In this document: piece by piece, positions 8,194 to 61,089 of the stretch
Layout of the letters: each line of letters opens with the position of its first letter
Position numbering within the stretch: position 1 is the stretch's first letter
NCBI GenBank assembly: GCA_038062955.1
Contig: JBBTWE010000001.1
Span: 253,925-317,924, forward strand
Direction of reading: 5' to 3'
Origin: Patescibacteria group bacterium
GTDB taxonomy: Bacteria > Patescibacteriota > Minisyncoccia > Phycocordibacterales > BOKC01
Length of the DNA: 64,000 nt
Position numbers and translations under genes: made by a program
The notes under the pieces: model-generated
Seen by the model: only the letters and a program-made list of their open reading frames with translations
The model's database searches: none
Told to the model about the DNA's origin: nothing

Positions 8194-8261
8194 ATTCAAG
8201 ATTTACGATTTAGGATTTAAGATTTTTTAAAATAATTTGATTAGAAAGGTTGTTTTAATAT

Positions 8262-12049: not shown

Positions 12050-13171
12050 TTATTGTCCCAACCAAACAGCTGTAATTCCTTTTATATATGGTGGAGTGAT
12101 GGAGGTATTATCAGTATTTTCCACAGAAATATTAAATTGATTATGCCAAATACGAATAATCCTAGTGACAGAAAACGGATCAGTCCCATCAGGATTATCC
12201 TTTGTTTCAAAAAGAATATCCTCACTAAATGGATTTCCGAAGTTACCTCCTGCACCTCCGTCCCAAAACATTCTAATTCTGGTTGCCTTAGAACAAGAAT
12301 CGCAAGTATTTCCTGTCGTGCCCCAGACTGTTACCTGCCACAAACCAGGCTGGAGGAAATTAAGTGGATTAGTCTGACCTGTAACAGTAGTAGTAATTCC
12401 TAGAGGAGAACTGAAATTAACAAGTGATTTATGAAAAGTATATGAGGCTTGTTGAGTAGGAGTGTTTACCCACACCGCTTCTCCCTCATAATCGAGCGAG
12501 GATAGATAAGTATCTGGATATGGTTTACCACCCATAATTCTTATCCTACCAAGAGTATAAAGAGAAACTTCTGGTGAATTAATAGTGCCACTACCGATTC
12601 GGACAGTACTACCTGGCCCACGAGGAATATCAATGGTGTATTCGGGATTCAGTGTCCCAATACCAATTCTTGCATCCGGGGAGTCAGCAATAATCGATGT
12701 GCCTAGTCCTACTTCGGAATTCCCTGGTCCTTCTAGGCGAATAGCTGATTGTTGTGGGTTTGCCCTATCTTTAAAGATATGTAGTATGCCTGGGATGCCT
12801 GGGATGGTTGCGGGATTTTTATTTCCGATCAATAAACCTTTATATGGAATAGTTACGGCAAAAGGAGGTATGGTGTTTGGAACCGGAACAAGATCATGCG
12901 TGTCTAGGTGCAGTGGACCATTTTTTATTTGAGGAGAATCACTAACATTCAAAGGTACACCCACGTTTTTTAACAGAGGATTGGGGGGGAGAAAAGATAG
13001 AGGTGGTGGAGTCCAAGGATGTGGTGATGTAAACCATGGGTTAGAAGGTGTCAAAAGCCAAGGATACACATTCCAATGTGTTGCCAATACATCTTGAGTA
13101 GAAACAGCGATCATCAAAGAAAGAATGATGATCTTAGAGACCGAAAGAAAGTTTTGTTTTAAATTTTTCAA
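12050..13171 (-). CDS. secreted paralog 1 of MKNLKQ-family surface proteins (TTG start)
   Basis: Conserved signal peptide. Shares PEYTIDIP, LQPGxW, GTTGNTCDSCS with the next two genes. Confidence 0.6.
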   Translation of the reverse strand: MKNLKQNFLSVSKIIILSLMIAVSTQDVLATHWNVYPWLLTPSNPWFTSPHPWTPPPLSFLPPNPLLKNVGVPLNVSDSPQIKNGPLHLDTHDLVPVPNTIPPFAVTIPYKGLLIGNKNPATIPGIPGILHIFKDRANPQQSAIRLEGPGNSEVGLGTSIIADSPDARIGIGTLNPEYTIDIPRGPGSTVRIGSGTINSPEVSLYTLGRIRIMGGKPYPDTYLSSLDYEGEAVWVNTPTQQASYTFHKSLVNFSSPLGITTTVTGQTNPLNFLQPGLWQVTVWGTTGNTCDSCSKATRIRMFWDGGAGGNFGNPFSEDILFETKDNPDGTDPFSVTRIIRIWHNQFNISVENTDNTSITPPYIKGITAVWLGQ

Positions 13172-13222
13172 TTTTTTGTTTTAAATTTATTCTAAACACT
13201 ATGACTTTCTACAAAAAGTTTT

Positions 13223-14293
13223 TTAACTTCCTATCAAATACCCGCTAATACCATTTATAGTTGGCGCATTGATTCCGCCTCCTCCACCATTATCATTCAC
13301 AGAAAAATTTAAGCCAGGATTGCCAGGCAGTACTCTAACAACCAGAGAAATAGAATATGGAGCAGTGCCGTGTGTAGGGGTTTCTATTCGAAAAGATCTA
13401 CCATCTGGAGTTGGCATCTGATTGTTCGAAACTTCGATAGTTACTGTAGTGTTTGGAGAGTATGCCGCTCCGGTAGTGCCAAAAACCGTAATATACCAAT
13501 AGCCCGGCTCAAGATTGCTGGTTGAATAATTATTATTGTTAACCCCCTGTCCCCAAGATTCATCGATAGTATGAAGCGCAGAAGAAGGAATCATGTTTGG
13601 ATCTGGAATAATGCGTGGACGGCCTGTTGCTGTCCATGATCCTGTTCCGTCGGCATCCACTGATTGTAAATAAGCATCAACTAAAGGTATGGGAAAAGGA
13701 TTACCTGTATCCATAATTTGCAACGTGCCAGAAGTTTGAAGAGAAACTCCAGACGGAACAGTGCCACCGCCAATTCGCATAACAGGGTTCCCTTGCGGAA
13801 TATCGATGGTATATTCCGGATTTAAGGCTGGGTCTGTTCCAATGCCAATCATTGTCCATTGAGTTGGAGTGACCAATGCTGGACCTGCCCCTTCCACACG
13901 AATAGCAGGTCGTTGTAAATTTGCCGGATCTTTATAAATATGGAATTGAGGACGAGATGAGGTTGAAATGGTTTCAGGATCTCTATTCCCGAGCAATACG
14001 CCTCCATTATTAACACCCATCGCATTCCCATGAATAATACTGAAACCAAAAGATGATGAAACATACGGAAATTCAGTTCTGACATTGTTTGCATTTATAA
14101 GTAGTGGCCCATCTTTTATTTGCGGCGTACTTCCTGTATTTAAAGGCAATGCTATGTTCCCGCCCGGAAAAGCAACTGTTACAGGTGCCGAAGAAGTCGG
14201 CTGTGCCAAAGTATGCGCAGTAACAAAACTAATCACTAAAAAAAGAATGATTATTTTTGCAATCGACAGAATTTTTTGCTTTAAATTTTTCAA
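13223..14293 (-). CDS. secreted paralog 2 of MKNLKQ-family (TTG start)
   Basis: Signal peptide ends ..AHTLA-QP. LPLNTGSTPQIKDGPLLINANNV and NPEYTIDIPQG are shared with the other paralogs. Confidence 0.6.
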   Translation of the reverse strand: MKNLKQKILSIAKIIILFLVISFVTAHTLAQPTSSAPVTVAFPGGNIALPLNTGSTPQIKDGPLLINANNVRTEFPYVSSSFGFSIIHGNAMGVNNGGVLLGNRDPETISTSSRPQFHIYKDPANLQRPAIRVEGAGPALVTPTQWTMIGIGTDPALNPEYTIDIPQGNPVMRIGGGTVPSGVSLQTSGTLQIMDTGNPFPIPLVDAYLQSVDADGTGSWTATGRPRIIPDPNMIPSSALHTIDESWGQGVNNNNYSTSNLEPGYWYITVFGTTGAAYSPNTTVTIEVSNNQMPTPDGRSFRIETPTHGTAPYSISLVVRVLPGNPGLNFSVNDNGGGGGINAPTINGISGYLIGS

Positions 14294-14307
14294 TTTTTTG
14301 TCTTAAA

Positions 14308-15447
14308 TTAATATTGCGTCCAATATGCGCTAACTCCGTTTATAAGTGGTTCTGCCGTGCCAGAAATGTTATCCGTAACACTGACTGTTATTTTGCCGTA
14401 GTTTAAGTTGGTATTTTGGGGAACATAAACAATCCTAGTAATAGAAAACTCCGCATTTCCATCTGGATGATCTCTTATGAAAAAAGGGGTATCGACAGTT
14501 CCAAGTGAACCATTCGCGCCAAGTCTCATTGAAACAGTAACTGTGTAAGAGCAAGTATCACAGGCATTTCCAATAGTACCAAAAGCCGTCACGTGCCAAA
14601 AACCCGGTTGTAGAAAGTTAAGTGGATCGGGCGAAATAGACGCGGTGGAAGCGACTCCACTTTCCGAGAATGCTTCAGGCCAACTAACATACTGAAGCAA
14701 GGAAGGGTTGTGGTTATATAAAGATCGCCTTGCATGATACGGAACCTTCCAAAGTGTTTCTCCGGTCCCATTCAAAGTGGCCAGATAAGCGCCAGGGAAT
14801 GGACCGGCAAAATCAGTGGATGGACCATTGCCGTCATATTGATTGCCACTATCGAGAGATGGACCACCTCCCATTATTTTTACTCGACCGTTAACTTGAA
14901 GAGAGACTTCATCGTCCTGTAGACTACCATTTGGCTCATCACCACCAAGCCGAACGATCGGGATACTGATGTTGTTAGGAGTTATATTTCCCCAAGGTAT
15001 ATCAACAGTGTAATTCGGATTTAATGTTCCAATACCTATTTTTGCATCTGCAGAGTCGGTAACAAGTGCCGGACCAGACCCCTCAATACGAATAAATATC
15101 CGTCGGTAGGTATTGTGAAAAATATGCAACAATCCTTGTGGGGCAGTAACGGTATCAATCTGTGCCAAAACAGTGCTAATCAACATGCCCCAATAAGGAA
15201 TGGTTAAGCCGAAATATTGGGCAACATTGTTTGCGTTTATAAGTAGTGCCCCATCTTTTAATTGAGGAGAAGAACCGGTATTTAACGGCAGATCTATTCT
15301 TTCTACGGCTACAAATGGATCTTCTGGAGGAGGAGTTGATGTAGGTGGAACCCACTGCGCAGAAGTTTGCCCAGCAAAAATGCTAATCATAAGGGAAAGA
15401 ACGATGATTTTTGTGACCGACAGAATTTTTTGTTTTAAATTTTTCAA
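14308..15447 (-). CDS. secreted paralog 3 of MKNLKQ-family (TTG start)
   Basis: LPLNTGSSPQLKDGALLINANNV, NPNYTVDIP, LQPGFWHVTAFGTIGNACDTCS. Confidence 0.6.
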   Translation of the reverse strand: MKNLKQKILSVTKIIVLSLMISIFAGQTSAQWVPPTSTPPPEDPFVAVERIDLPLNTGSSPQLKDGALLINANNVAQYFGLTIPYWGMLISTVLAQIDTVTAPQGLLHIFHNTYRRIFIRIEGSGPALVTDSADAKIGIGTLNPNYTVDIPWGNITPNNISIPIVRLGGDEPNGSLQDDEVSLQVNGRVKIMGGGPSLDSGNQYDGNGPSTDFAGPFPGAYLATLNGTGETLWKVPYHARRSLYNHNPSLLQYVSWPEAFSESGVASTASISPDPLNFLQPGFWHVTAFGTIGNACDTCSYTVTVSMRLGANGSLGTVDTPFFIRDHPDGNAEFSITRIVYVPQNTNLNYGKITVSVTDNISGTAEPLINGVSAYWTQY

Positions 15448-15518
15448 TTTTTTGTTTTAAATCCACGAATGAGAAGATGTTTTCTGAAAATCTCTATTCA
15501 GCAGGTTCATCTTCTATT

Positions 15519-17481: not shown

Positions 17482-19278
17482 TTACTCTTTTCTTCTTGCT
17501 CTTGATCGGTCAGTATCACTTAAATACTGCTTTCTTAGTCTCACACTCTTGGGAGTTACTTCCAAATATTCATCGTCTGCCATTATTTCAAGTCCTCGCT
17601 CAAGCGTAATTGGCACCGGAGGGGCGAGCATAATATTTTCATCAGACCCACTTGCGCGCATGTTGGTGAGTTGCTTTCCTTTAGTGGGATTCACAGTCAT
17701 CTCTTCACCTTTTGAAGTATTACCAATAACCATTCCTTCGTAAACTTCTTCAGTTGGTCCGATATATAAAGTGCCTCGATTTTGAAGATTGTCCAAAGAG
17801 AATCCAAGAGCTTTGCCGGTCGCTTGTGAAATCATTGAGCCAACACTTCTCTTTTTAATCTCTCCAAAATATGGACGAAAACCAAGCACTCGGCTTGCCA
17901 TAATTCCCTCTCCTTTTGTATCGACTATAAACTGCCCACGGAAACCCAAAATGCCTCTAGTTGGACCTTCAAAGGTGAGTCTTACGCGTGATCCGTCCGG
18001 CTTCATATTTGTCATCATTACCCCTCTCTTTGATAGATTTTCGATAATACCTCCCTGCATTGATTCTGGAACTTCGATAGTCACCTCCTCAAACGGTTCA
18101 CTTTTCACACCATCAATATCTTTGATAATAACTTGTGGTTGAGATACCTGCATTTCATAACCTTCTCGGCGCATGTTTTCAAGCAAAATAGCGATGTGCA
18201 TTTCTCCACGGCCGTACACTCTCATATCGTCACCTGAAAAGTCCACCCGTAACCCGACGTTGATTTCAAGTTCTTTTTCGAGCCTTTCTCTTATCTGCCT
18301 GCTAGTAACGAATTTTCCTTCTTTGCCGGCAAAAGGCGAATTATTAACCAAAAAATTAAGAGCGATGGTTGGTTCATCAACCTTTATCACTGGAAGAATT
18401 TCTGTATCTTGCGAATCGGTTATGGTATCGCCAATATAAATCTCTGGTAGACCAGCGAGCATAGCAATATCCCCTGCTTCAGCTTCCGCAACTTCTTTTC
18501 TGGAAGTTCCTTCAAAAGTAAAAATCTTGGTTATTTTTTCTTCTTTTATTTCACCCCCAAGTTTCTTTACAAAAACTTTAGATCCGACTTTTACAGTTCC
18601 TTCGTAAATACGACAAATCGCGAGTCTCCCCAAGAAATTATCGTATCCCAGATTAAAAGGCTGGGCTTTAAGCGGCGCGGTTTTTGATGCATTAGCTGGT
18701 GCGACTTTTTCAAGGATGGTATCCAAAAGTGGCGACATATCTTTCTTTTCGTCCGAAAGTTTCTTCATAGTAACCCCTTGTTTTCCAATCGCATATACGG
18801 TTACAAAATCTAATTGTTCTTCATTTGCTCCAAGTTCAAAAAAGAGTTCCAAAACTTCATTGTGAGCTCTTTCTGGGTCAGCGGCCGGTTTATCTATTTT
18901 ATTTAAAACGACTATTGGTTTGTGTCCGATTTCAAGTGATTTTTTCAAAACGAATCTAGTTTGTGGCATCGGCCCTTCTTGAGCGTCAACAACAAGAACA
19001 ACTGAATCAATTGATTTTAAAACTCGTTCAACTTCGGATCCGAAATCAGCATGTCCCGGAGTGTCAACGATATTTATTTTAGTGCCTTTGTAGATTATCG
19101 AAGCATTTTTGGCATAAATAGTAATACCACGCTCTCTTTCAAGAGAATTTGAATCCATACTGCCTCCTTCCGGCGACATACCGGTTTGCTTCATGATGGC
19201 ATCAGTGATGGTGGTTTTGCCGTGATCTACGTGGGCTATGATTGCTATATTTCTAATTTCCATAGTGTCAACTTTCAT
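17482..19278 (-). CDS. typA: translational GTPase TypA/BipA
   Basis: [22 protein letters not shown] and NKIDK, at EF-G-like length. An alternative start MEIRN lies 15 bp downstream. Confidence 0.9.
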
Positions 19279-19389
19279 ATTTGGCCAATTTGCTTGCTAA
19301 AATTTCCGTGTCTCACTTCATCGTATTATTAAATACGTCTCGTTTCGATACTCAATTTTATTAAACAACTTGTCTCAAATCTGAAAGTT
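19279..19389. repeat. 111-bp element, left copy of an inverted duplicate pair (carries the typA promoter and leader)
   Basis: Reverse complement matches 48613-48723 with a single mismatch. Contains the palindrome CGTATTtaatAATACG. Confidence 0.85.
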
Positions 19390-22632: not shown

Positions 22633-23328
22633 CTAGTCCGGCAAAATCTTGGAAGCTTCTGCGGGTGCTTCCTGGGGAACAGGCGCAACTTCTGCACCAA
22701 TTCCTGCTTCTGCGGGAGGATCGCGAGAATCATCGGCGAGAAGAGTGTCCTCATCACCATTCGCGATTTGCTCTTTAGCTTTGTCGAAGTAGCTGTCCCA
22801 CTTCTCCTCTGCGAGACCAAAGAGAAGCATCACTTTGTGGGCTTCCTTGAACTCAAGACGAGACTTTTCAGTGAGAGAATCTCCGAGGCCATGCTGGGCT
22901 TCACAGAGAAAATGCGACACAGCAAATGATACCAGAACCCTCTCTGCCATCTTTGAGAGTGCTTCGTCGTTGAGCACTCCAGCACAGCTACTGTACTCTT
23001 TGAGTTTGTAGCAATCCCTCAAGAATCTCCGATCTGCTAGTCGGTGAGTGAATAGGTATGCGTACCCAGAGGAGAGAAAAAACGTACAACCCACACTCGC
23101 TACAAGAAAGAGCAACAGACCAAACGCCGTACTATTTTGACCCCACAGATGCTCGCCACCCAAAATAAGGAGGGTTGTGGTCACAACAAGCAACAAAAAA
23201 CCGTACTCACATTCCCTCCTGCTCTTTACGGCTTCAAAAGGTGATGAGGTGCAACCAACTCTTTCCCACCTATCAACCAGAGTGACTGATGCCACTCTCT
23301 CAAAGAACGCGTCGAGAAGATGTCCCAT
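22633..23328 (-). CDS. GC-rich membrane protein with acidic C-terminal tail, unknown function
   Basis: 231 aa with two TM helices and a GGAG RBS. Terminator GACCCGTgcactaggcaACGGGTC plus T-run at 22594-22627. Confidence 0.45.
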   Translation of the reverse strand: MGHLLDAFFERVASVTLVDRWERVGCTSSPFEAVKSRRECEYGFLLLVVTTTLLILGGEHLWGQNSTAFGLLLFLVASVGCTFFLSSGYAYLFTHRLADRRFLRDCYKLKEYSSCAGVLNDEALSKMAERVLVSFAVSHFLCEAQHGLGDSLTEKSRLEFKEAHKVMLLFGLAEEKWDSYFDKAKEQIANGDEDTLLADDSRDPPAEAGIGAEVAPVPQEAPAEASKILPD

Positions 23329-24243: not shown

Positions 24244-24633
24244 TTAACTTTGGAATTCAACTTCAAAAGGGTACATTCCCATACCACAGCTCCCTTGGAG
24301 AGTCGCTAACTGCGGAGTTCCAATATCGATATCTGTCGAACCACTTTGAGGAAGTATTTTACTAATGTTCATACTTGGAATACGCACCGAAGATGAACAA
24401 TCGAAAGTTCCGTTTGTGTCAAAACGAATAATTGTTGGGATGCCAGCCTTTGCAATACTCTTCCTTGGTTGATATCCGCCCTTAGCTTTTATTTCAATGA
24501 TTTGCTTGCCATCCACAATGGAAACATTATTTCCATTCGGAATTTCCCCCGAACTATTTCCATTTTTTGAGAGCGCAAAAGCGCCCCCAATGAGAGCGAC
24601 CGCAACTAAAATTGATATAAGGGTAAATTTCAT
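24244..24633 (-). CDS. small exported protein in the copper operon
   Basis: Start MKFTLISILVAVALIG comes from the leader element. Signal peptide present. Confidence 0.5.
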   Translation of the reverse strand: MKFTLISILVAVALIGGAFALSKNGNSSGEIPNGNNVSIVDGKQIIEIKAKGGYQPRKSIAKAGIPTIIRFDTNGTFDCSSSVRIPSMNISKILPQSGSTDIDIGTPQLATLQGSCGMGMYPFEVEFQS

Positions 24634-24789
24634 CCCGTAGTGAAATTTCAGGTCGTCCCGTAGTAGAAGCGAAGCTTTCACTACGGGACTATCCTGATAT
24701 TTTTTTGAGTATTCTTAATAAGTAAACTTAATTCTTTTATGTGTTCCGTAGTAAGTATTTACAACCTGAAATTCTACTACGGGATTCAT
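24631..24789 (-). promoter_or_regulatory. leader element family A, copy 1 (uORF plus four CCCGTAGT/ACTACGGG segments; supplies the gene's ATG)
   Basis: Aligns with 30463-30621 and 34393-34550. uORF MNPVVEFQVVNTYYGTHKRIKFTY. Hairpin GTCCCGTAGT-loop-ACTACGGGAC. Confidence 0.7.
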
Positions 24790-24792
24790 CCC

Positions 24793-28720: not shown

Positions 28721-29092
28721 ATGACCACGCAAGCGATCCGTGACTTTTTCTGGGTTCTGCAGGCTTTTATTCGAGGCAAGGTGTTTCACCAGACAGATTA
28801 CGTGCCTGGACCGAACGCTAAAGCTTTCATAATGAGTTTAGTGAGGCCGAGCTGGAGAATCAGAGGGAGCTTCAGTGTTGGGCGTATTGCAACCCTGATG
28901 AGATGGTGGGGTCCGCAGATGATGACAAAGCGCCAGATACACGACCTGGAAAGTCTGGCGGCTTACGAACACGAAGCGTTCAAAAAAGTTCCGTTTTTGT
29001 TCTGGTATGAAAACGAAACGAGGCTTTTTTGTGGAGTTGCAGATCCAGGCTGGATCGAGCTAAGGGAAATGGAGGTTGAGGCCAATTCTTGA
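28721..29092 (+). CDS. GC-rich hypothetical protein (123 aa), foreign-looking cassette
   Basis: ~50 % GC with strong SD and promoter. Terminator GGGCGACtagaaataGTTGCCC plus T-run at 29120-29150. Confidence 0.5.
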   Translation: MTTQAIRDFFWVLQAFIRGKVFHQTDYVPGPNAKAFIMSLVRPSWRIRGSFSVGRIATLMRWWGPQMMTKRQIHDLESLAAYEHEAFKKVPFLFWYENETRLFCGVADPGWIELREMEVEANS

Positions 29093-30048: not shown

Positions 30049-30465
30049 CTATTCAACGATAAGTTTTCCTACCATCCCCTTAGCTCTATGAGATCCAACT
30101 GAACAATAATATTCAAAAGTTCCTATCTTATCTGCGACAAATTCGATTGTGTCATCTGCGCCTCCTTTGGTAATAATTTTTGTTGCGGCGTTAAATTCAT
30201 CAATTTTAAAATCGTGCGGCATAACATCAGGATTTTTAAGAGTTATTTTTACGGTATCTCCAACATTAACCTTAATTTCGGCGGGCAAGAATTTGAAATC
30301 TGTTCCTACAACTGTGAATTCTCTTATCGTAGACGTTGGCTCTGCAATAATTTTAGTGACATCTTCTTCTGTTGTTACAGGAACAGTGTTGGTATCTTTA
30401 GTTAGAAACCACATCCCGCCCAAAACAATAATTAAGAGAGCAATAATACCTATTAATTTATTCAT
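30049..30465 (-). CDS. type-1 copper cupredoxin (plastocyanin/amicyanin-like), membrane anchored
   Basis: Ligand pattern MPHDF ... YYCSVGSHRAKGM, i.e. His, Cys, His, Met. Confidence 0.75.
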   Translation of the reverse strand: MNKLIGIIALLIIVLGGMWFLTKDTNTVPVTTEEDVTKIIAEPTSTIREFTVVGTDFKFLPAEIKVNVGDTVKITLKNPDVMPHDFKIDEFNAATKIITKGGADDTIEFVADKIGTFEYYCSVGSHRAKGMVGKLIVE

Positions 30466-30621
30466 CCCGTTAGTGAAATTTCAGGTCATCCCGTAGTGAC
30501 AGCTTCGCTTCTACTACAGGACTATCTAGAAAATTCTATTTATTTTTTAATATATTCTATTGGTTAATAATATTCCCATGAGTCAAACAATTGCAACCTG
30601 AAATTCTACTACGGGATTCAT
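30463..30621 (-). promoter_or_regulatory. leader element family A, copy 2
   Basis: uORF MNPVVEFQVAIV. The hairpin loop is inverted relative to copies 1 and 3. The ATG of the cupredoxin gene lies inside the 3' module. Confidence 0.7.
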
Positions 30622-30632
30622 ATTTTTTTATA

Positions 30633-31866: not shown

Positions 31867-32412
31867 TCATCTACTCGGGTGAGTGGACTCTAGCCATTTC
31901 CAAGCTTTCCTCATTGCGATGAGGTGATGTGGACGGAACTTCATCTGTCCATCTTGTACCCCGTTCTTGTCTCCATCCGTTGATTCTACAGCCTCCTCGA
32001 TTTGACTCTTCGTCCGAAGCTTGAAGGTGCCAGAAACTTCCCCGCGAATCTCCTTGAGGATCGTGGATGGAACTGAAGCAACAAACACAACGTGCCGATC
32101 TCCGTCCTGGTCGATCTCATCGTAAATAGAGAACGGACCTCCGGATTTCTCCAGAATCTGAAGGAGAATATCTGCGGCTTCGTGATCCAATTCCTCATTG
32201 GCTCCACGACTCAGAGTAGAGGAAAGGGATCCCTCATCATTCGCCTCCATTTTCTCATTGAACATGGGAGAGAAAACGCCGGCAAATGACTGTTTCTTAT
32301 AGCCAGTCGGACTTTCAGCATTGAACTCATTCCTCTGTTGACAGATAGTTACCCATCCGCCAAGTTCTGGAATGTGAGTAAAAGCAACACACGCCACATG
32401 GGTTGTTGGCAC
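31867..32412 (-). CDS. GC-rich hypothetical protein (181 aa)
   Basis: ~50 % GC ORF with its own terminator. No recognised motif. Confidence 0.45.
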   Translation of the reverse strand: MPTTHVACVAFTHIPELGGWVTICQQRNEFNAESPTGYKKQSFAGVFSPMFNEKMEANDEGSLSSTLSRGANEELDHEAADILLQILEKSGGPFSIYDEIDQDGDRHVVFVASVPSTILKEIRGEVSGTFKLRTKSQIEEAVESTDGDKNGVQDGQMKFRPHHLIAMRKAWKWLESTHPSR

Positions 32413-33501: not shown

Positions 33502-34395
33502 CTATTTGGAATAATATTTGAGAAGAGCATCTATACCCTTCTGATTCTTGTCCCATTCAACCTCATTGTGTGTTGAGAGAAGAACGCTGATTGCTGGAAC
33601 ATTTATTTTAGCGAGCCAATTTACCATGTCTCCTGTTATTTCGTAGAAATCAAAATCATCTGAAGCTGGGTATCCGGAAGCATCAGCGTAAGTTTTTGTT
33701 AGAGTGCTTGTTTCAGGCAAAATACCTTTGTGACAATTTGATGCGAACACACCTCCTGCGGCACTATACCAAACAACAACTGCATCTGGTTTTTTTGTCT
33801 CCACATAATTTTTTATTGCTTGGCTTTCTGGTTCAGAAAATACTGCATCTCCACCGCTTACATCTTTACTTTGCCACTTGCCTGTAGCTTGCCAATCACA
33901 ATCAAAATTTCTGTTTAAATCAACAGTGTTTCCATTGAAACGGCCGGCAACTTGTGTTGTTTGTGATGCTCTAATATCAGCTTTTGTAAAACGTCCTGTG
34001 GTTGTAGCAACCTTGCTTAGACCATCTGGATTTAACACTGGGATAACTGTTACTTTTACGTTTGTTGGGATGACATTAGTAGTGCCTTCTTCCAATAAAT
34101 AATCCATGAGTCGGTAAGCGACCAAAGTTGTATTCCAAGAATACCCTCCGTGGATACCTCCAACAAATAGAAGCTCTGTGTCCCCTTCACCGAAGTGATA
34201 GGCAACGATTTCACGTCCTTCGACTGAAGTTCCGATAACAGTTTTGGTTTTATCAACTGGCACCTGCACGATTGGTTCAGTAACCACTGGAACTGGTTCG
34301 ACAGGAGCTGGCACTGCTTTTTCTTTGTTTTTAATAAAATAGAAACCAAGACCGATGAGAATGATGATTACAATTATTAGTATAAATTTTTTCAT
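33502..34395 (-). CDS. M14 zinc carboxypeptidase family protein, exported (paralog)
   Basis: GGIHGGYSW, NPDGL, DLNRNFDCDW. Start codon lies inside leader copy 3. Confidence 0.75.
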   Translation of the reverse strand: MKKFILIIVIIILIGLGFYFIKNKEKAVPAPVEPVPVVTEPIVQVPVDKTKTVIGTSVEGREIVAYHFGEGDTELLFVGGIHGGYSWNTTLVAYRLMDYLLEEGTTNVIPTNVKVTVIPVLNPDGLSKVATTTGRFTKADIRASQTTQVAGRFNGNTVDLNRNFDCDWQATGKWQSKDVSGGDAVFSEPESQAIKNYVETKKPDAVVVWYSAAGGVFASNCHKGILPETSTLTKTYADASGYPASDDFDFYEITGDMVNWLAKINVPAISVLLSTHNEVEWDKNQKGIDALLKYYSK

Positions 34396-34550
34396 CCCGA
34401 TAGTGAAATTTCAGGTCGTCCTGTAGTAGAAGCGAAGCTTTCACTACGGGACTATCCTCGAAATTCAGTTTATTTTTAATAAGATAGGTTATCCAATTAT
34501 ATTCCCGCGCATCAAGTATTTGCAACCTGAAATTCTACTACGGGATTCAT
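34393..34550 (-). promoter_or_regulatory. leader element family A, copy 3
   Basis: uORF MNPVVEFQVANT. Same hairpin and terminal modules as copies 1 and 2. Confidence 0.7.
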
Positions 34551-34662
34551 AATGTTTTAGAATAATTTAATAAAAACGACAAAAACGTTTGTTTAAACAT
34601 CTCATATCATTCTAAGTCTTTTGATATATCAAAGCAACTCACCATTAACGAAACAAGCGGTT

Positions 34663-48612: not shown

Positions 48613-48723
48613 AACTTTCAGATTTGAGACAAGTTGTTTGATAAAATTGAGTATCGAAACGAGACGTATTTAATAATACGATGAAGTGAGACACGGAAAT
48701 TTTAGCAAGCAAATTGGCCAAAT
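48613..48723. repeat. 111-bp element, right (inverted) copy
   Basis: Reverse complement of 19279-19389, and carries a pseudo-start GTGGAAGTT. Confidence 0.85.
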
Positions 48724-48732
48724 GTGGAAGTT

Positions 48733-51360: not shown

Positions 51361-52206
51361 CTATCTTACCTTATAGAAGATTTTATTACCAAACTGAAGA
51401 TTAATTTGTTCAAGAGACCCTAAGGAATCAATTTCTTTTTGAAACTCGAGTTCGTCTATAAGCGCAGTGAGATTCTCAAATGTTTTTTCAAAATCATTTT
51501 CTGGATTTAAAATTAATTTAATATCCCCGCTTAAGCGTATTTCAAGATTCTCTCGATTATTGATGACCTTAATAATTTCTACATTAAAAGTCTTCGAAAC
51601 ATTATTTAAAAAACTATTTAAATCTTCGAAATTTTTTGTTTCTAGAAAATAATCGTTCATGGATTCGGTAGATGTGGCAGTATAATATTTTACAAAAGAG
51701 TTTCCACTAAAGTTAGGGGCGTCATCAAATAAAAAGCCTGTTTTATCCAAATACGAACATTTTTCATTTGAAATTTGATCGGACGATGATTCGCACCAAA
51801 GACCAAAGGGCTGTCTTTCTAGAATTTTAATGTTCAGAATTGAAAATTTTTCAATTGAAACCGTAACATCTGAAATTCTTTTAAATTGACTCAAAATATC
51901 ACTTTCAATTTCATATCTTGGATAAAGAAGAATATTTGATTTTGAAAATAGGCCGAGCATGGCGCCGTCTATTTTATTTTCAGCAATTTGAATTATTTCT
52001 TTCGTGTTTACAACCTCTTCTCCTGTTGTTTTTATTTCTTTAATGCCAAGAAATTTAGCATGGGAAAGCAAAGACAGTGTGCCGACAAACACAACTACTA
52101 ACAAAAAATATAAAACTATTCTGATAATAATTTTTTTTCTTCTCTTTTTAACTATATTGGAAGTTTTGAATTTTAACTTTGTACGAAACATATTAAATAG
52201 ATTCAT
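51361..52206 (-). CDS. FtsQ/DivIB-like cell-division protein (basic N-terminus, TM, POTRA-like region)
   Basis: KKRRKKIIIRIVLYFLLVVVF anchor followed by FLGIKEIKTTGEEVVNTKEI. The murF-PBP genes are nearby. Confidence 0.4.
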   Translation of the reverse strand: MNLFNMFRTKLKFKTSNIVKKRRKKIIIRIVLYFLLVVVFVGTLSLLSHAKFLGIKEIKTTGEEVVNTKEIIQIAENKIDGAMLGLFSKSNILLYPRYEIESDILSQFKRISDVTVSIEKFSILNIKILERQPFGLWCESSSDQISNEKCSYLDKTGFLFDDAPNFSGNSFVKYYTATSTESMNDYFLETKNFEDLNSFLNNVSKTFNVEIIKVINNRENLEIRLSGDIKLILNPENDFEKTFENLTALIDELEFQKEIDSLGSLEQINLQFGNKIFYKVR

Positions 52207-52235
52207 GATTCAAGATTCATGACTTTAAAATCTTA

Positions 52236-53633: not shown

Positions 53634-54485
53634 ATGGACAGTATTAAAGTCTTAAATAAAAAAGATTGGCCGAAACTTCTCCTTGAAATAAACGATCCGC
53701 CAAAAAAACTTTACATAAGAGGTGTCTTCCCGGGAGAAGATTTCCTATTTTTAAGCGTAGTTGGTTCCCGAAAATACACAAATTACGGAAAGTCGGCTTG
53801 CGAAGCCCTTATTGAGAGCTTACGAGGACAGCCGGTTGTGATAGTTTCTGGGCTAGCTTTAGGAATTGATTCGATCGCTCACAAAAAAGCTCTGGAAATT
53901 GGACTTACAACTCTCGCAATTCCAGGCTCTGGATTAGATGAAAAAGTGCTTTATCCTAGCACCCACAAAAACCTGGCGAGACAGATTGTCGAGAAGGGCG
54001 GATGTTTAATTTCAGAATTTGAACCGGATTTTAAAGCCACTGCATATTCTTTCCCCCAGAGAAACAGAATCATGGCCGGGTTATCTTCGGCTGTTTTAGT
54101 AATTGAAGCTGAGAAAAAATCAGGCACGCTCATCACCGCAAGACTTGCACTCGATTATAACCGTGATGTTTTTGCAGTGCCCGGACCAATTTTTAGTTCA
54201 AGCTCTGAAGGCACAAATATGCTCATCAAAAATGGCGCCTGCACAATCACGAGTCCTTCTGATCTTTTGGACGTATTAGGATTAAAAGAGCCTACTCCGG
54301 AAGATAAATTCGCCGACTGTTCCGAAGATGAAAAGAAAATCATCGAACTTTTGAAAAACCCAATGACTCGCGACGAGCTTATACGAGAAAGCGGTTTCTC
54401 CTCCCAAGACGCTCAAGTGCTTCTTTCGGTTATGGAGATCAAGGGAATTATCGGAGAGAGTATGGGAGAGATAAGAATTAAGTAG
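53634..54485 (+). CDS. dprA: DNA-processing protein DprA/Smf
   Basis: VVGSRKYTNYG ... VIVSGLALGIDSIAH ... C-terminal winged-helix domain. Confidence 0.85.
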   Translation: MDSIKVLNKKDWPKLLLEINDPPKKLYIRGVFPGEDFLFLSVVGSRKYTNYGKSACEALIESLRGQPVVIVSGLALGIDSIAHKKALEIGLTTLAIPGSGLDEKVLYPSTHKNLARQIVEKGGCLISEFEPDFKATAYSFPQRNRIMAGLSSAVLVIEAEKKSGTLITARLALDYNRDVFAVPGPIFSSSSEGTNMLIKNGACTITSPSDLLDVLGLKEPTPEDKFADCSEDEKKIIELLKNPMTRDELIRESGFSSQDAQVLLSVMEIKGIIGESMGEIRIK

Positions 54486-54515
54486 ATTTATGATCTACGA
54501 TTTAAGATATAAGAT

Positions 54516-54553
54516 TTAAAAAAATTCTTACGAAGAATCGTAAGAATTTTTTT
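54516..54553. terminator. bidirectional rho-independent terminator
   Basis: A6-AATTCTTACGaagaatCGTAAGAATT-T7. Confidence 0.75.
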
Positions 54554-55215: not shown

Positions 55216-55737
55216 CTAGGCTACCTGAGCAGGAGTAGAAGTGGATGAGACAGCAAAGGCAACTCCACCATCTTGATCCCACACATCAGTAGGTTTGACG
55301 CAGTATGCCACCAACCATGGCTGGGTAGAATGCCATCTTGCAACAAGAAAAAAAGGTTCATTGCCACAATGAAGTGGATTATGTAGAGCAACAATCCAAT
55401 ACAGACCCATTTCCCGGATCTGATCGTTTGTGAACATTCTGCGTATCAGACAGACAACTTCAGCATTTGGCACCCTGAGATCTCGTTGACTGGCCCTAAT
55501 ACGTATAGCTAACGTAGTACGCTCAACAACAGGAATAAATCCCACCTTAAGAACCGCTATCTCAGTGGTAACACCAGAGGTCGCCACGAAAAAAGGAGAA
55601 CGCAAGAGAGTTCTTGCTTCGTCAGAAAGTGGGTAAAAATTCTCGTCGAACCATTTCATCCACCCTTCGCCTGTCGTGCCGTCGCTCGTGACAGAGAAGT
55701 AGATGACCCCATTCTCTTCGCGCCAATCGTGTGACAT
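55216..55737 (-). CDS. GC-rich hypothetical protein (173 aa)
   Basis: ~52 % GC, with GGAG 8 nt before the ATG, its own promoter and its own terminator. Confidence 0.45.
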   Translation of the reverse strand: MSHDWREENGVIYFSVTSDGTTGEGWMKWFDENFYPLSDEARTLLRSPFFVATSGVTTEIAVLKVGFIPVVERTTLAIRIRASQRDLRVPNAEVVCLIRRMFTNDQIREMGLYWIVALHNPLHCGNEPFFLVARWHSTQPWLVAYCVKPTDVWDQDGGVAFAVSSTSTPAQVA

Positions 55738-55899: not shown

Positions 55900-55928
55900 A
55901 ACATACTCTTTGTGAAGCATTTTGTCAA
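55900..55928 (-). promoter_or_regulatory. sigma70 promoter TTGACA-17-TATGTT
   Basis: Reverse complement reads ttgacaaaatgcttcacaaagagtatgtt. Confidence 0.45.
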
Positions 55929-56005
55929 CATCAAAACGCAGATTCAAGATTTATGATTCACGATTCATGAATTTAAAATCTTAAATCGTATATCATAAAT
56001 CTTCC

Positions 56006-57118: not shown

Positions 57119-57568
57119 ATGATTTTAAATACTATAAGAGAAGAAATTAAGGTAGCAATGCGAGCAAAAGATACAATGAGTCTCAATACTCTGCGAGGAG
57201 TTTTGGCTGCATTCACCAATGAGCTTGTGGCGACTAAAAGAAAACCACAAGAAGAATTGACCGATGAAGAAGCCCTGAATGTTATTAAACGACTTTGCAA
57301 ACAAAGAAAAGATTCAATCGAACAATTTAAAACCGGCGGTCGCGCTGATCTGGTTCTAACCGAAGAAAAGGAACTCCAAATTTTAAAAAAATATCTACCT
57401 GAAGAAGTTGGTGAAGCAGAAATTAGAAAAGTAGCCGAAAGTAAAAAAGTGGCTTTGAAAGTTACAGATAAAGCAAAAATTGGAATCTTGGTTGGGGCAG
57501 TGATGAAAGAACTTAAGGGTAAGGCAGACGGAGCTAGTGTCAAAAAGGTAATCGAAAGCCTATTCTAG
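57119..57568 (+). CDS. GatB/YqeY-domain protein
   Basis: EEIKVAMRAKDTMSLNTLRGVLAAF ... KGKADGASVKKVIESL is the typical YqeY pattern. Confidence 0.7.
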   Translation: MILNTIREEIKVAMRAKDTMSLNTLRGVLAAFTNELVATKRKPQEELTDEEALNVIKRLCKQRKDSIEQFKTGGRADLVLTEEKELQILKKYLPEEVGEAEIRKVAESKKVALKVTDKAKIGILVGAVMKELKGKADGASVKKVIESLF

Positions 57569-57731
57569 GATTTATGATTTAAGATATGAGATTTCAGATT
57601 TAAGAAAAATATCTATAATTATTGATTCCTGAATTTATTTGTATCATTCGTAATTGGTGTCGTGTGTATAAAAAAACCGCGCAAACCCTGCACTTGCAGT
57701 GTCTACGCGGTCGATGTTGCGCTACCCAATC

Positions 57732-58256
57732 TCACATCGGATAAGCTCGAGCGAAACGAGTTGCGTGTTCCCTGTCCCCGGCTCCCAACAAAGTCCAGAG
57801 GAGTCGAAAATGGGTACCATTGTCCATCCGAGGCATGTACAGAATGAACCGCTCGGGACCTTTCACGATGTGTAGCCTCGGGTTGCGAAGTTTCCTTCCT
57901 CCCTTGCAGAAAACCCTTGTTCCGGGAAATTCCAGAGAATTACCCGCTTCAAGAAGCTGTAGGAGAGCTGGCGGCTTGTGCTCAAAGAGCCACAGTGCCT
58001 GCTGACATCCAGCCACCCCCAGATCGACAAGGTTCCGATCATAACGTTCGCTGTCCACCTCGGGAAGAGGAGAAGTTGCGAGACGTTCCGCTTCCACCCT
58101 ACAGAGACCATCGATTGATCTCTCTTCCATTTCAGAAATCTGCATCTCCGGAAATCTGGCGCAAAGCTCTCTTCGTGTTGGCTTGCGGAGCTTCGGAACC
58201 AAGATGTTCATCATCGCAACACTGTGACTTCTGACTGCTTCTCGACGCATTTGCAT
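57732..58256 (-). CDS. GC-rich hypothetical protein, paralog A of a tandem pair
   Basis: Shares GVAG.Q.A.WL ... ALL.LL ... LEFPGT ... MPR ... LGAGD with 58558-59094. AGGAAA RBS. Confidence 0.5.
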   Translation of the reverse strand: MQMRREAVRSHSVAMMNILVPKLRKPTRRELCARFPEMQISEMEERSIDGLCRVEAERLATSPLPEVDSERYDRNLVDLGVAGCQQALWLFEHKPPALLQLLEAGNSLEFPGTRVFCKGGRKLRNPRLHIVKGPERFILYMPRMDNGTHFRLLWTLLGAGDREHATRFARAYPM

Positions 58257-58346
58257 GATTGACCGTTTCCTAAAAAGAAGTTTCGAATAGCGCTTCCAAA
58301 GAACTATTCCTCTTGCAAGATAGCATTTTTAGTGCTGTTGTGTCAA

Positions 58347-58432
58347 CCCCGTAGTACCTGCCTACCGGCAAGGCAGGGATTTTGGCATAGCAACTTTGTT
58401 GCAAAGCAACGATGCCAAAATTCACTACGGGG
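58347..58432. repeat. palindromic element family B, copy A (immediately upstream of the -35 of paralog A)
   Basis: CCCGTAGT...ACTACGGG outer stem. CCTGCCTACCGGCAAGGCAGG and TTTTGGCAT..ATGCCAAAA internal hairpins. Inverted twin at 59276-59361. Confidence 0.75.
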
Positions 58433-58557
58433 TCGAATTAATTAGATAAATATAAAAAAGACCCCGGAGACACTGCTAAACAGCATCTCCGGGGTCCGAA
58501 TGTTCGCTTCGATTCCAGGATAAACCTAGAACGAAGTTGTGAGGTGTTCGATCCGTC

Positions 58558-59094
58558 TCACACTGGCGGAACAGCGAAAGCAACCCGAGTCCTGGGATCC
58601 AAGTCCCCTGCACCCAGAGAACCCCATGTCATTTGAAGACCCGAACCTCCATGGATCCTCGGCATGAGCGGAATGAGCCTCTGTTGCCCAATCACTTTCC
58701 CTCTTGCCACCTTTGGCACAGTGATGACCGTGCCGGGGAACTCGAGACAGAACCCATCTCGCAGAAGTTCCAGAAGTGCTTGAGGGCGACTCTGGAGAAG
58801 CCATCTGGCGTGCTGGTAACCAGCCACTCCCGCCATCCTTCCGCACCTCTTCATCTCCAACTCGAGCTTCGTACCGTACCTCTCTCCATCGACTGACCCG
58901 ACGGAGCATGTGGACAGGCCTTTCGGCACTATCTTCACAGGACACAGGACCGAACTGTCCTGTGTCTCGAGAATCCCCATCTTGGGAAACTTGCCGCGGA
59001 GCATCCTGATACTCGTCGCGCCAACTCCCGGAATCACGATCTCCTCCCACGGGGAAGAAACCATCTTCGACTCCACGAACGTATCTACTTGCAT
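58558..59094 (-). CDS. GC-rich hypothetical protein, paralog B
   Basis: Paralog of 57732-58256. Promoter TTGACA-15-TATAAT at 59249-59275. Terminator GACCCCGGAGAtgctgtttagcagtgTCTCCGGGGTC plus T6. Confidence 0.5.
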   Translation of the reverse strand: MQVDTFVESKMVSSPWEEIVIPGVGATSIRMLRGKFPKMGILETQDSSVLCPVKIVPKGLSTCSVGSVDGERYGTKLELEMKRCGRMAGVAGYQHARWLLQSRPQALLELLRDGFCLEFPGTVITVPKVARGKVIGQQRLIPLMPRIHGGSGLQMTWGSLGAGDLDPRTRVAFAVPPV

Positions 59095-59275
59095 GACCGT
59101 TTCCTTCTATCGAGTGACCGAAAGCACCCAAGAAACTTGGATGCTTTTCACCTCTTTTCAACATCCAAAGAACCCATTGGGACGAGTGCCTCAAACCTTG
59201 AAAAGAAGTATGCGAGCAGGTTCCTCCAAAGAACTACTCCTCAAATAAATTATACCTTTAATGACCGCGTGTCAA

Positions 59276-59361
59276 TCCCGTAGTGAATTTTGGCATCGTT
59301 GCTTTGCAACAAAGTTGCTATGCCAAAATCCCTGCCTTGCCGGTAGGCAGGTACTACGGGA
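59276..59361. repeat. palindromic element family B, copy B
   Basis: Reverse complement of 58347-58432. Preceded by the same GTGTCAA (-35) junction. Confidence 0.75.
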
Positions 59362-59452
59362 TCAAATAAAAAAACAGCCCACCTAGACCGAAGTCTAGGT
59401 GGGCTGTCGAAGAGAGTTGAACTCCCTGTTTGTGGGTCGGGCGAAGCCGAAC

Positions 59453-60100
59453 CTACGTGACGGCGAGCGTTTGGATGAGCTTGTTCATCACAGTCTTCTT
59501 GAAACAGATGGGCCATTCCTGACCACCAAGAGCTTCCGCGACCTTTCTCACGGAAGTAATTCGTGCACGCTCTTCACTGAGTTCATCACGCAATCGAAAA
59601 CATTCATTACGCTCACGCTCGAGATCTCGACGACTCGCGACCAACTCTGCTTCGAGCTCATCGACGGGTCGGCTCTGCTGAGGTTGCTCCCAGCTTTCCG
59701 CCGGACGTACGGTGCCCGCACGAATTGCGTCGTGGAGTTTCCTCACTTCCCCGAGCTTCGTTCCCGTAGCCCTCAAGAAGTAATTCGAGGAGTTCACCTC
59801 CAGTCTGACAACAGCGTCTCCGAATTGCTCTTCATCACGATAGATCCCCGTCTCCCGCCGCGGCTGCAAAGGAAAGCAACCATGGAAAGATACGTCGGTC
59901 ACAAAGGGCAGGAGCGCTTCTGGGATCATGTCGTCCAGATAGCCCAGACAAAGATGGAGGCGTCCCTCTGTTCCCGAGAGGCCAGTACCTTTGAAGGTGG
60001 TCTGCTCCCAGTTCCGCACCGGCTTACCACCGGTCTTCTGTTCCACCTCGAATCCTTCCTCCTGCCGAATGGCTTCCTTCAGATACACGTTCACAGACAT
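59453..60100 (-). CDS. GC-rich hypothetical protein (215 aa, C-terminal coiled coil)
   Basis: Real-looking composition. The opposite-strand ORF 59399-60199 is R/L/S-rich antisense noise. Own terminator at 59371-59412. Confidence 0.45.
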   Translation of the reverse strand: MSVNVYLKEAIRQEEGFEVEQKTGGKPVRNWEQTTFKGTGLSGTEGRLHLCLGYLDDMIPEALLPFVTDVSFHGCFPLQPRRETGIYRDEEQFGDAVVRLEVNSSNYFLRATGTKLGEVRKLHDAIRAGTVRPAESWEQPQQSRPVDELEAELVASRRDLERERNECFRLRDELSEERARITSVRKVAEALGGQEWPICFKKTVMNKLIQTLAVT

Positions 60101-60345
60101 CGCAGACTCCTTGTTTTAGCTGCCAGGTTTACCGTAGGGTTGCTCACCCAGTCGGGCCTCGATCAGCGAACTGTTTTATCATCAGAGATGTTCCGATGAC
60201 TCTGTTACTATTGTATCATATGCCACGCAAAAGTCAAGGGCGATCCACAGGACTCTCCACATATTCCAAAATATCTATATTTCTAGGCGTTTAATAAAAT
60301 AAAAAAACCGGCGGCCGATCTGAATCAGCTGCCAGTTTTGACCCC

Positions 60346-60831
60346 CTACTTCACATCCTTGAGAAGCGACATCCCGTGATACCAATGGCGTCCAAAGAAT
60401 CTTGTGGGACCACTGATCCATTCTTCTCCACTAAAATCATCGAAACCACTTGATCGAGGTTGATTTTGATAAAACAGACCTCTACCTCGTGCAAGCATTG
60501 GACCACGGCCACCCAAAAACTGACGCTTCTTGTAGGCCTTTTGAAGGCATGTCTTGAGAAACGGGATCGCCTTCTCATCATACCAACCACCGTAGTGCAT
60601 CATCCAGACTGGTTGGTCTCGGTAGAAGATTATGGTCATCCCAGAACTCTTGTTGGAGTGCGAGTTCACCATAAAACAATCCACCATCTGGAATTCGCCA
60701 GAAATGAAAGTAAACTTTCTGGAACCAGGAAGCTCCGCTATGTCACCCTTTGGGCTTCCTGTGCCACACCAGCCCGCCAACATCCCATCGAAGAAGAATT
60801 CCTGAACTGACTCTAATGTAGATTGCTGCAT
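60346..60831 (-). CDS. GC-rich hypothetical protein (161 aa)
   Basis: Last gene of the island before tRNA-Glu. No recognised motif. Confidence 0.45.
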   Translation of the reverse strand: MQQSTLESVQEFFFDGMLAGWCGTGSPKGDIAELPGSRKFTFISGEFQMVDCFMVNSHSNKSSGMTIIFYRDQPVWMMHYGGWYDEKAIPFLKTCLQKAYKKRQFLGGRGPMLARGRGLFYQNQPRSSGFDDFSGEEWISGPTRFFGRHWYHGMSLLKDVK

Positions 60832-60914
60832 CTTTGCTTACCTCGTTGATTGGTTAGAGAACAAAGTTTTTCTAGAGTGAAGATAATATTAAATGGAGTT
60901 TGTGTCAACTTTGA

Positions 60915-60986
60915 TGACCCTACGCGGAATCGAACCGCGCTTCCAGCCTTGAGAAGGCTGTGTCCTAGCCGATAGACGATAGGGCC
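60915..60986 (-). tRNA. tRNA-Glu(CUC)
   Basis: 72 nt. Acceptor GGCCCTA/TAGGGTC, anticodon loop TTCTCAA, T-arm CGCGG-TTCGATT-CCGCG, discriminator A. Confidence 0.7.
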
Positions 60987-61033
60987 ATAATAAATAAAAC
61001 TTTTAAAAAAACATCATTGTGTTCTGGCCGATA

Positions 61034-61053
61034 CCTGCCTGCCGGCAGGCAGG
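61034..61053. repeat. 20-bp palindrome inserted into a duplicated tRNA-Glu 5' segment
   Basis: ctggccgata-[CCTGCCTGCCGGCAGGCAGG]-gacgatagggccgttata compared with ctagccgata-gacgatagggccataata in the tRNA. Confidence 0.75.
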
Positions 61054-61089
61054 GACGATAGGGCCGTTATACCTAACTTTTTTAATATA

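Follow-up and report, generated by a model that had tools for sequence, protein, structure and literature searches.

Is a GC-rich block of genes lying beside a tRNA gene a recent arrival, or an old part of the genome? This question is raised by a locus from the Patescibacteria, or candidate phyla radiation (CPR), whose members are largely uncultured and in whose small genomes orphan genes make up a large part. The stretch analysed (the window) is 64 kb long, and its source population was found in groundwater of the Hainich, well H43. Four minus-strand genes, labeled g1 to g4, lie in it between tRNA-Glu and yqeY. The first-pass annotation of this DNA read the block as a foreign island, recently integrated at the tRNA and still active through duplication. 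The comparison with related genomes reported here leads to a different answer, namely that the block is probably a long-lived hypervariable slot in a conserved Patescibacteria backbone, and not a freshly integrated island.

The tRNA-Glu–yqeY interval in related genomes

The region is not a product of faulty assembly. The 4.5 kb between 57000 and 61500 are 99.5–100% identical wherever they are covered, in contigs of at least five independent assemblies (one of them a 277-kb contig), and the chimeric join that had been raised as a caveat is therefore ruled out. Contig breaks do occur at the 89-nt repeats described below, and are accounted for by the length of these repeats. Two candidate strain-level variants were also rejected: what looked like a truncated g4 in L007 is a scaffold N-gap, and the g3 unit, which lies between inverted 89-nt repeats, has a single orientation in all assemblies.

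The window has the arrangement g1-g2-g3-g4, and the interval holds one, two or at least four such genes depending on the genome. L148 (a 28-kb contig) reads murF - tRNA-Glu - g3 - yqeY - rmuC, and L015 likewise has one g3-type gene, between tRNA-Glu (its 3′ end at the contig edge) and yqeY - rmuC. In L137–L142 one g3-type gene adjoins yqeY, and the upstream side is uncovered or occupied by an insertion sequence (IS). L012 reads murF - tRNA-Glu - g3 - g4 - yqeY, without the 89-nt elements and without the tRNA fragment of the window, and the short contig L014 holds the 3′ end of g3 followed by g4, with no 89-nt element between them and its flanks not seen. In a Rifle-type relative (L159, L161, L138), murF is followed by a DUF4383 gene, tRNA-Glu, two NUDIX genes and a 70-aa gene, and then by a GC-rich methyltransferase gene, g2′, a 142-aa gene, an IS with an rve integrase-type transposase (1197–2075 in L138, 1538–2392 in L161), g3′ and yqeY. 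The position of this IS between g2′ and g3′ shows that the interval also accepts mobile DNA.

A g3-type gene adjoins yqeY in every related genome with both flanks seen, where it is GC-rich too, and g2 and g3 are GC-rich in every genome in which they were found. Since the same interval is occupied in relatives whose housekeeping proteins are 81–98% identical, g2 and g3 are shown to be old residents of the interval between murF/tRNA-Glu and yqeY; g4 is shown to be an old duplicate of g3, present in a subset of genomes. A recent island should be missing from relatives, with a precise junction at the tRNA. No relative has an empty tRNA-Glu/yqeY site (L148 has g3, L012 has g3 and g4, L159 and L138 have g2′ and g3′); g1 and the 89-nt elements alone are confined to the window lineage.

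Divergence and base composition

Between the window and the Rifle-type relative, backbone proteins are 97.7% (RmuC), 97.6% (L21), 92.6% (YqeY) and 81.3% (MurF) identical, against 62% for g2 and 44% for g3. The slot proteins thus diverge far faster than the backbone, and the gene content differs among close relatives, which bears out the proposal of an accessory, variable module. The g3 proteins of the window and L148 are 79% identical, though L148 is about as distant by MurF and YqeY as the Rifle-type relative. The divergence of g3 therefore does not track that of the backbone, which suggests that alleles or paralogs were replaced, or that g3 evolution accelerated in particular lineages. At a second position, between rmuC and rplU, the GC-elevated gene of the window (55216–55737) is replaced in L137 by a non-homologous protein (BLASTP E = 31).

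The GC content is 0.52–0.58 across 57700–60100 (g4 to g2), 0.46–0.50 over g1 and ∼0.38 (range 0.33–0.42) elsewhere in the window, so that the GC-rich block was correctly recognized at first, against a background in the high rather than the mid 30s. GC at third codon positions (GC3) is 0.5–0.64 in the block genes and 0.27–0.42 elsewhere. Such atypical composition is one trait of tRNA-integrated islands, but here it is at equilibrium. Synonymous GC is 0.55–0.66 in all g3 orthologs (∼0.6 versus ∼0.3 in the genome), and third-position synonymous changes polarised with an outgroup are balanced (GC>AT to AT>GC of 6/6, 7/5 and 10/8, among others). Because of this balance, the high GC is maintained and is not the fading signature of an import. 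The description of the block as foreign-looking DNA is not supported, as g2 and g3 are GC-rich in relatives too and the synonymous changes are balanced.

Transcription and translation signals

The four ORFs (open reading frames) first proposed, at 60346–60831 (g1), 59453–60100 (g2), 58558–59094 (g3) and 57732–58256 (g4), were all recovered on the minus strand, and each is predicted to be a separate transcription unit, with no operon. Promoter-like sites on the same strand were identified for g1 (60880–60908, TTGACA-17-TATCTT), g2 (60210–60237, TTGACT-16-TACAAT with an upstream TG, conserved in L159), g3 (59243–59271, TTGACA-17-TAATTT, read from sequence and conserved in L012) and g4 (58317–58346, TTGACA-18-TATCTT with an upstream TG, conserved in L012 and L014). 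Three of these agree with the promoters placed by the first-pass annotation; in the fourth, for g3, the TATAAT box it had chosen would give a 15-nt spacer, and the conserved site is the one given above. Every gene is also followed, as had been noted, by a terminator-like hairpin and T-run, at 60305–60321 for g1, 59373–59408 for g2 (16-bp stem), 58459–58497 for g3 (18-bp stem, conserved in L012 and L014) and 57679–57693 for g4, all on the minus strand. The last of these belongs to a terminator and 3′ untranslated region (UTR) hairpin spanning 57672–57716, whose type also follows the last gene before yqeY in L012, L014 and L137, as well as the g3-type gene of L016, a locus in which yqeY was not seen.

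Shine-Dalgarno (SD) sequences were found for g1 (GAGGT), g2 (AAGGAG) and g4 (AGGAAACGG); the automated scan took g3 in another frame, and its SD, AAGGAAACGG, was read by eye. An SD-like string precedes only nine of the 58 ORFs of the window, six of which are GC-elevated (g1, g2, g4, 22633–23328, 28721–29092 and 55216–55737). Perfect TTGACA boxes in the window likewise lie mostly upstream of this GC-elevated gene class, and the housekeeping genes of this genome lack an SD. Four GC-elevated orphan ORFs lie outside the block, at 22633–23328 (minus), 28721–29092 (plus), 31867–32265 (minus) and 55216–55737 (minus), with a GC of 0.48–0.50 and a GC3 of 0.43–0.55, and none of the four matches a Pfam family. 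No SD-like string was found upstream of 31867–32265, while the other three are each preceded by an SD and a near-consensus promoter of their own, with a clear terminator in two cases. The GC-rich, SD-bearing genes therefore form a class scattered through the genome, beyond the block. It follows that the composition and signals of the block are indeed atypical for this genome, and that the contrast drawn with native genes lacking SD and consensus promoters is real, but that the same signals occur on GC-elevated ORFs elsewhere.

Conserved leaders and a shared motif

The 5′ leader of g3 (59095–59240, minus strand) is predicted to form three hairpins, and carries the motif TAGTTCTTTGGAGG at its 5′ end. 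Over its ∼150 nt, identity is 80–92% in every pair of five genomes, including pairs whose proteins are only 42–47% identical. A consensus fold of five distinct leaders has 43 predicted pairs, three of which, all in P3, show compensatory changes, while P2 is almost invariant; the single-sequence fold has z = −4.3, and no Rfam family matches the leader. Similarly, the ∼110-nt leader of g2 (60101–60209, minus strand) is ∼90% identical by eye to that of L159, versus 62% for the protein. The g4 leader (58257–58310, minus strand) is short, with the motif TAGTTCTTTGGAAG; its likeness to a tRNA T-arm (14 of 16 nt) was judged to be at chance level.

The 5′ UTR strings reported as common to the g3 and g4 units are real. 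Four genes share a motif, TAGTTCTTTG(G/A)A, immediately 3′ of the −10 box: g3, g4, the window gene of the rmuC–rplU slot, and its non-homologous replacement in L137. This suggests common control of these genes. Whether the motif acts as an operator or as an RNA-binding site is speculation, as is CsrA-type control of GGA-rich leaders, no CsrA-like signature having been found in the window.

The encoded proteins

The protein g3 (178 aa) is the founding member of a clade-restricted family, of which g4 (174 aa) is an old paralog. The two are 35% identical (E = 2e−28), confirming the paralogy first noticed from shared sequence blocks. The duplicated ∼940-bp units described at the same time are real as regards the shared UTR strings, but these short strings and the 35% protein identity are all that the units have in common. 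The duplication is therefore old, and gives no sign of the recent activity that had been read into it. The g4 orthologs are 63% (L012) and 56% (L014) identical to that of the window.

An end-to-end alignment of 11 family members shows the conserved motifs GYQHxxWL and (E/D)FPGT. The family is very rare: a word-indexed search of 5.8 billion proteins returned seven clusters, and an exhaustive HMMER profile search of 1.84 billion representatives returned three strong members and three weak hits of the same length (E ∼1e−4 to 1e−5), which I take as distant members. One of these weak hits lies on a contig that resembles another CPR genome by gene content, where the gene has a GC of 59% versus 47%. 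Two further weak hits, to long proteins with repeated matches, were set aside. No sequence-level relation of g3/g4 to any Pfam family was found.

The AlphaFold (AF2) model of g3 is confident (predicted local distance difference test, pLDDT, 86.7; predicted template modelling score, pTM, 0.83). Foldseek searches with the g3/g4 fold against the Protein Data Bank (PDB) and against viral models gave nothing significant, and the modeled fold is weakly C-type-lectin-like. On account of this weak match, g3 and g4 are probably, though with low confidence, small soluble ligand-binding proteins.

The protein g2 (215 aa) is an orphan. It has a mixed alpha/beta N-terminal part followed by a long C-terminal helix, and its AF2 model is poor (pLDDT 54). 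Homologs form one other cluster only (P0015/P0016, 59–62% identity) among the 5.8 billion proteins; the N-terminal part is conserved in them and the helical tail is more variable. The protein g1 (161 aa) passes the gathering threshold of Pfam PF18931 (31.5 bits against a cut-off of 25, E = 2.5e−7, 94 of 104 profile positions), and is named DUF5680 domain-containing protein by NCBI. This family has no known function, and the one literature mention found is as a machine-learning feature; a 60-residue N-terminal extension of g1 lies outside the profile. The gene was seen only in the window lineage, and is absent from the relatives L012, L148 and L159. Neither g1 nor g2 has a sequence match to a solved structure.

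Palindromic elements and the tRNA-Glu remnant

Two copies of an 89-nt palindromic element, each a GTAG-type hairpin repeat with an inserted 21-nt hairpin, flank g3: copy A at 59272–59360 (insert at 59331–59351), and copy B, inverted relative to A, at 58348–58436 (insert at 58357–58377). They are 98% identical, and are predicted to fold into a Y-shaped three-way junction (free energy −53 kcal/mol, z = −8.4). The palindromes first reported at 86 bp thus exist as an inverted pair, at 89 nt, but they lie outside the old duplicated unit, being absent from L012 and L014. Since the copies are nearly identical to one another and missing from relatives, they are shown to be later arrivals flanking g3, and no part of the g3/g4 duplication.

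For the 9-mer CCCGTAGTR, 12 occurrences were counted in the window where 0.25 would be expected, all confined to five loci, namely the two 89-nt elements and three ∼150-nt leaders (of two cupredoxin genes and an M14 peptidase gene). Without the 21-nt hairpin, the element is a plain 68-nt hairpin. Because the ends of this remainder match the native leader repeats, the 89-nt element appears to be a native GTAG-tagged repeat of the repetitive extragenic palindrome (REP) type that had acquired a 21-nt insert. Neither the 89-nt element nor the leaders could be placed in a known RNA family: no Rfam model reached its gathering threshold, and what similarity there was (mir-558, 28 bits against a cut-off of 90) is at chance level.

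The three leaders themselves, ∼155 nt each, lie on the minus strand at 24622–24790, 30455–30622 and 34385–34551, and each immediately precedes a gene, for a cupredoxin-like protein in two cases and for an M14 carboxypeptidase in the third. Their long-range stem of 23 bp (CCCGTAGTAGAATTTCAGGT / ACCTGAAATTTCACTACGGG) closes at the AUG and encloses an inner GTAG hairpin, with no Rfam match. They are candidates for cis-regulation of these genes, whose products are predicted to bind metal and have a hydrophobic N-terminus, or else a repeat resembling a miniature inverted-repeat transposable element (MITE). Two other repeats were noted in the window. An inverted repeat of 120 nt, 98% identical, has its arms 29 kb apart (19270–19389 and 48613–48732). 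Three ∼1.1-kb tandem units at 13079–15462, sharing repeats of 108 nt and 74 nt (72–81% identity), overlap three similar ORFs (12050–13114, 13223–14020 and 14308–15390), and look like a tandem paralog array.

On the murF side of the block, the intact tRNA-Glu (CTC) lies at 60913–60987 on the minus strand (ARAGORN; Rfam tRNA, 51.8 bits). A remnant of its 5′ end is found at 61025–61072, also on the minus strand, in the ancestral position directly after murF, preceded by a spacer that matches the one between murF and the tRNA in L012. The repeated tRNA segment of the first-pass annotation is therefore real, and proves to be a 25-nt 5′ segment split precisely, and without target duplication, by a 20-nt perfect palindrome, CCTGCCTGCCGGCAGGCAGG (61034–61053). 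At the corresponding point the intact tRNA reads ...ATCGTC/TATCGG..., without the insert.

This 20-nt palindrome is a shorter version of the 21-nt hairpin found in the 89-nt elements, CCTGCCT[G/A]CCGGCAAGGCAGG. The exact 21-nt hairpin occurs in at least 120 stretches of species-representative genomes (L017–L136), where ∼4 were estimated by chance, and its hosts span many phyla (Bacteroidota, Patescibacteria, Omnitrophota, Planctomycetota, Gammaproteobacteria and others, isolates included). It is also found in nine IMG/VR stretches (L150–L158), some of which carry adjacent pairs in opposite or same orientation. Among the matches listed, 54 of 124 occurrences lie inside long ORFs, most commonly read as LPAGKAG; being 21 nt long, the hairpin always adds seven codons. 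No relevant literature on the sequence or its peptide readings was found. It is often flanked by heptamer direct repeats. Heptamer-like (GATTTNN)n arrays that resemble those flanking the hairpin in other phyla are present in the window, one on the yqeY side of the block (57555–57602) and similar ones in intergenic positions at gene ends (8179–8226, 52186–52233, 54471–54518 and 55927–55974).

Alternative explanations

A defence, toxin/immunity or counter-defence module of unfamiliar families, which is a functional reading compatible with the slot, would be in keeping with a hypervariable locus, rapid protein divergence, orphan genes, and an IS in the same interval of a relative. A defence, toxin/immunity or regulatory role was also the suggestion of the first-pass annotation. 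I consider it unlikely: PADLOC, PHROGs and NCBIfam gave no match for any of g1–g4, no nuclease, ATPase, protease or toxin-like domain was found in them, each gene has its own promoter and terminator with no operon or coupled pair, and the number of genes, from one to at least four by genome, leaves no fixed partner set.

The reading of the block as a recently acquired foreign island, inserted site-specifically at tRNA-Glu and active through recent duplication, has in its favour a GC of 52–58% against 38%, canonical promoter, SD and terminator signals unlike those of native genes, a tRNA and a partial tRNA copy adjoining the block, and g1 confined to the window lineage. Against it stand the presence of g2 and g3 in the same interval of relatives, with g3 beside yqeY, a GC3 at equilibrium, and paralogs only 35% identical. 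In addition, the genes of the block and its flanks are those of a penicillin-binding protein (PBP), MurF, g1–g4, YqeY and RmuC, with no integrase among them and no integrase Pfam family annotated. The 24-nt 3′ segment of the tRNA occurs once in the window at up to three mismatches, so there is no distal copy that could serve as an attachment (att) repeat, and the sole partial copy is a 5′ piece on the murF side. A phage origin is rejected, with no relatives of g1, g2 or g3/g4 in IMG/VR and none of g1 in phage records. For g2, g3 and g4 the island reading is largely refuted, and as an account of the block it is very unlikely.

It is also conceivable that the GC-rich units are genes for structured non-coding RNAs, with the ORFs as by-products, as in AT-rich genomes structured RNAs typically stand out as GC-rich units with a promoter and a terminator of their own; several overlapping ORFs exist in other frames, and the gene caller of one assembly took another frame of g3. 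Substitutions between the window and L012 are nevertheless concentrated at third codon positions (35/29/83 by position in g3, 34/39/66 in g4), and the amino-acid replacements are conservative over the full length across the 11 homologs. The confident g3 model, the DUF5680 match of g1, SD motifs at the right distance and the lack of Rfam matches agree with this. The four ORFs are genes, and the codon-position statistics and protein conservation rule out RNAs in their place, leaving this reading with hardly any probability.

Diversity-generating retroelements (DGRs), which are said to be common in the CPR, act on variable proteins with a C-type-lectin fold, but, rapid divergence apart, g3 and g4 do not behave as DGR targets, a reading that can be discarded with near certainty: no template/variable repeat (TR/VR) of at least 40 nt involves g3/g4 in the window, no reverse transcriptase (RT) lies beside the block in any locus, and the divergence runs along the whole protein instead of being confined to a C-terminal VR.

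A probable hypervariable slot and its implications

The hypervariable slot, which I favour, would be organized as follows. The tRNA-Glu–yqeY interval holds a stack of monocistronic, cassette-like genes, each with its own predicted sigma70-type promoter, conserved 5′ leader, SD, GC-rich coding sequence and intrinsic terminator. As the comparison shows, g2 and g3 are old residents and g4 is an old duplicate of g3, while g1 was seen in the window lineage only. Later additions are the two 89-nt copies of a native GTAG-type repeat that already bore the 21-nt palindromic mini-insertion, the same mini-palindrome having also split the 5′ remnant of tRNA-Glu. Since the proteins diverge much faster than the backbone while the leaders are conserved, the slot proteins are probably accessory and under diversifying selection or allelic replacement. 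Their expression probably passes through a shared control element, made up of the structured leader and, at the start of the mRNA, the TAGTTCTTTGGA motif, and homologous recombination in the conserved flanks is the probable means by which gene content changes.

Several points weigh against this model. The relatives are few and mostly on short contigs. Relaxed constraint, and not diversifying selection, could lie behind the fast divergence. Recombinational exchange of cassettes would be deduced only from incongruent distances and conserved flanks. Finally, inspection by eye shows neither a signal peptide nor a transmembrane segment in g3 or g4, which fits a role in surface interaction poorly.

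A broader possibility, which I regard as doubtful, is that the clade reserves fixed slots (tRNA-Glu–yqeY, rmuC–rplU and possibly others) for a distinct class of exchangeable monocistronic cassette genes, GC-rich at equilibrium and equipped with canonical promoter and SD, the shared TAGTTCTTTGGA motif and conserved leaders, while the coding parts diverge or are replaced extremely fast. If this were true, it would amount to a dedicated system for expressing and exchanging rapidly evolving interaction proteins in an ultra-small, probably symbiotic bacterium.

The locus offers a concrete and comparable example of where Patescibacteria genomes vary: at fixed slots, with independently expressed genes whose proteins change fast and whose control regions do not. 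The juxtaposition of AT-rich housekeeping genes lacking an SD and GC-rich orphans bearing one suggests two translation regimes in one cell. A stable synonymous GC of ∼0.6 versus ∼0.3 speaks against inferring recent horizontal transfer in these genomes from composition alone. Material for further study includes a new protein family, for which there is a confident model, a leader that may be structured and, in the 21-nt palindrome, an apparently very widespread mini-insertion.

Comparison with known systems

Relative to C-type-lectin-like proteins and those resembling the formylglycine-generating enzyme (FGE), such as C-type lectin-like domains (CTLDs), the EgtB C-domain and TvpA, g3 and g4 have an extra N-terminal subdomain in the model, and lack an evident signal peptide (by eye).

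For the 21-nt hairpin, the closest parallels are small palindromes that insert in frame into genes. Rickettsia palindromic elements (RPEs) are of this kind, and measure ∼100 nt or more. Intragenic REPs have been described likewise, as small palindromes inserted in frame into genes (PMC3733652). The hairpin resembles both in lying, at 54 of the 124 occurrences listed, inside long ORFs, where it adds seven codons in frame. It is far smaller than RPEs, and differs further in being identical in sequence across many phyla, in showing no target duplication in the one clear case, and in having no known associated transposase. The 89-nt elements can in turn be compared with GTAG-tagged REPs, which are palindromes of 20–40 nt with a GTAG tag (Di Nocera et al. 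2013, PMC3733652). They share the CCC-GTAG-T...A-CTAC-GGG stems, also present in the three native leaders, and are intergenic, downstream of terminators, and arranged as an inverted pair. They differ in length (68 nt plus the 21-nt hairpin) and in that their GTAG is predicted to be base-paired in the stem and not an unpaired tag; no REP-associated tyrosine transposase (RAYT, Y1/HUH) was noticed within the 64-kb window.

As a whole, the block can be set beside flexible or replacement genomic islands, which are hypervariable slots at fixed positions, often next to a tRNA, of an otherwise syntenic backbone. Like these, it occupies a fixed tRNA-adjacent position where gene content varies among close relatives, near a slot with a non-homologous replacement, and has atypical composition, orphan genes and, in one relative, an IS. 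Unlike these, it carries neither integrase nor att repeats, each of its genes is a separate predicted unit whose leader is more conserved than the coding sequence, and its atypical GC is at equilibrium and not ameliorating.

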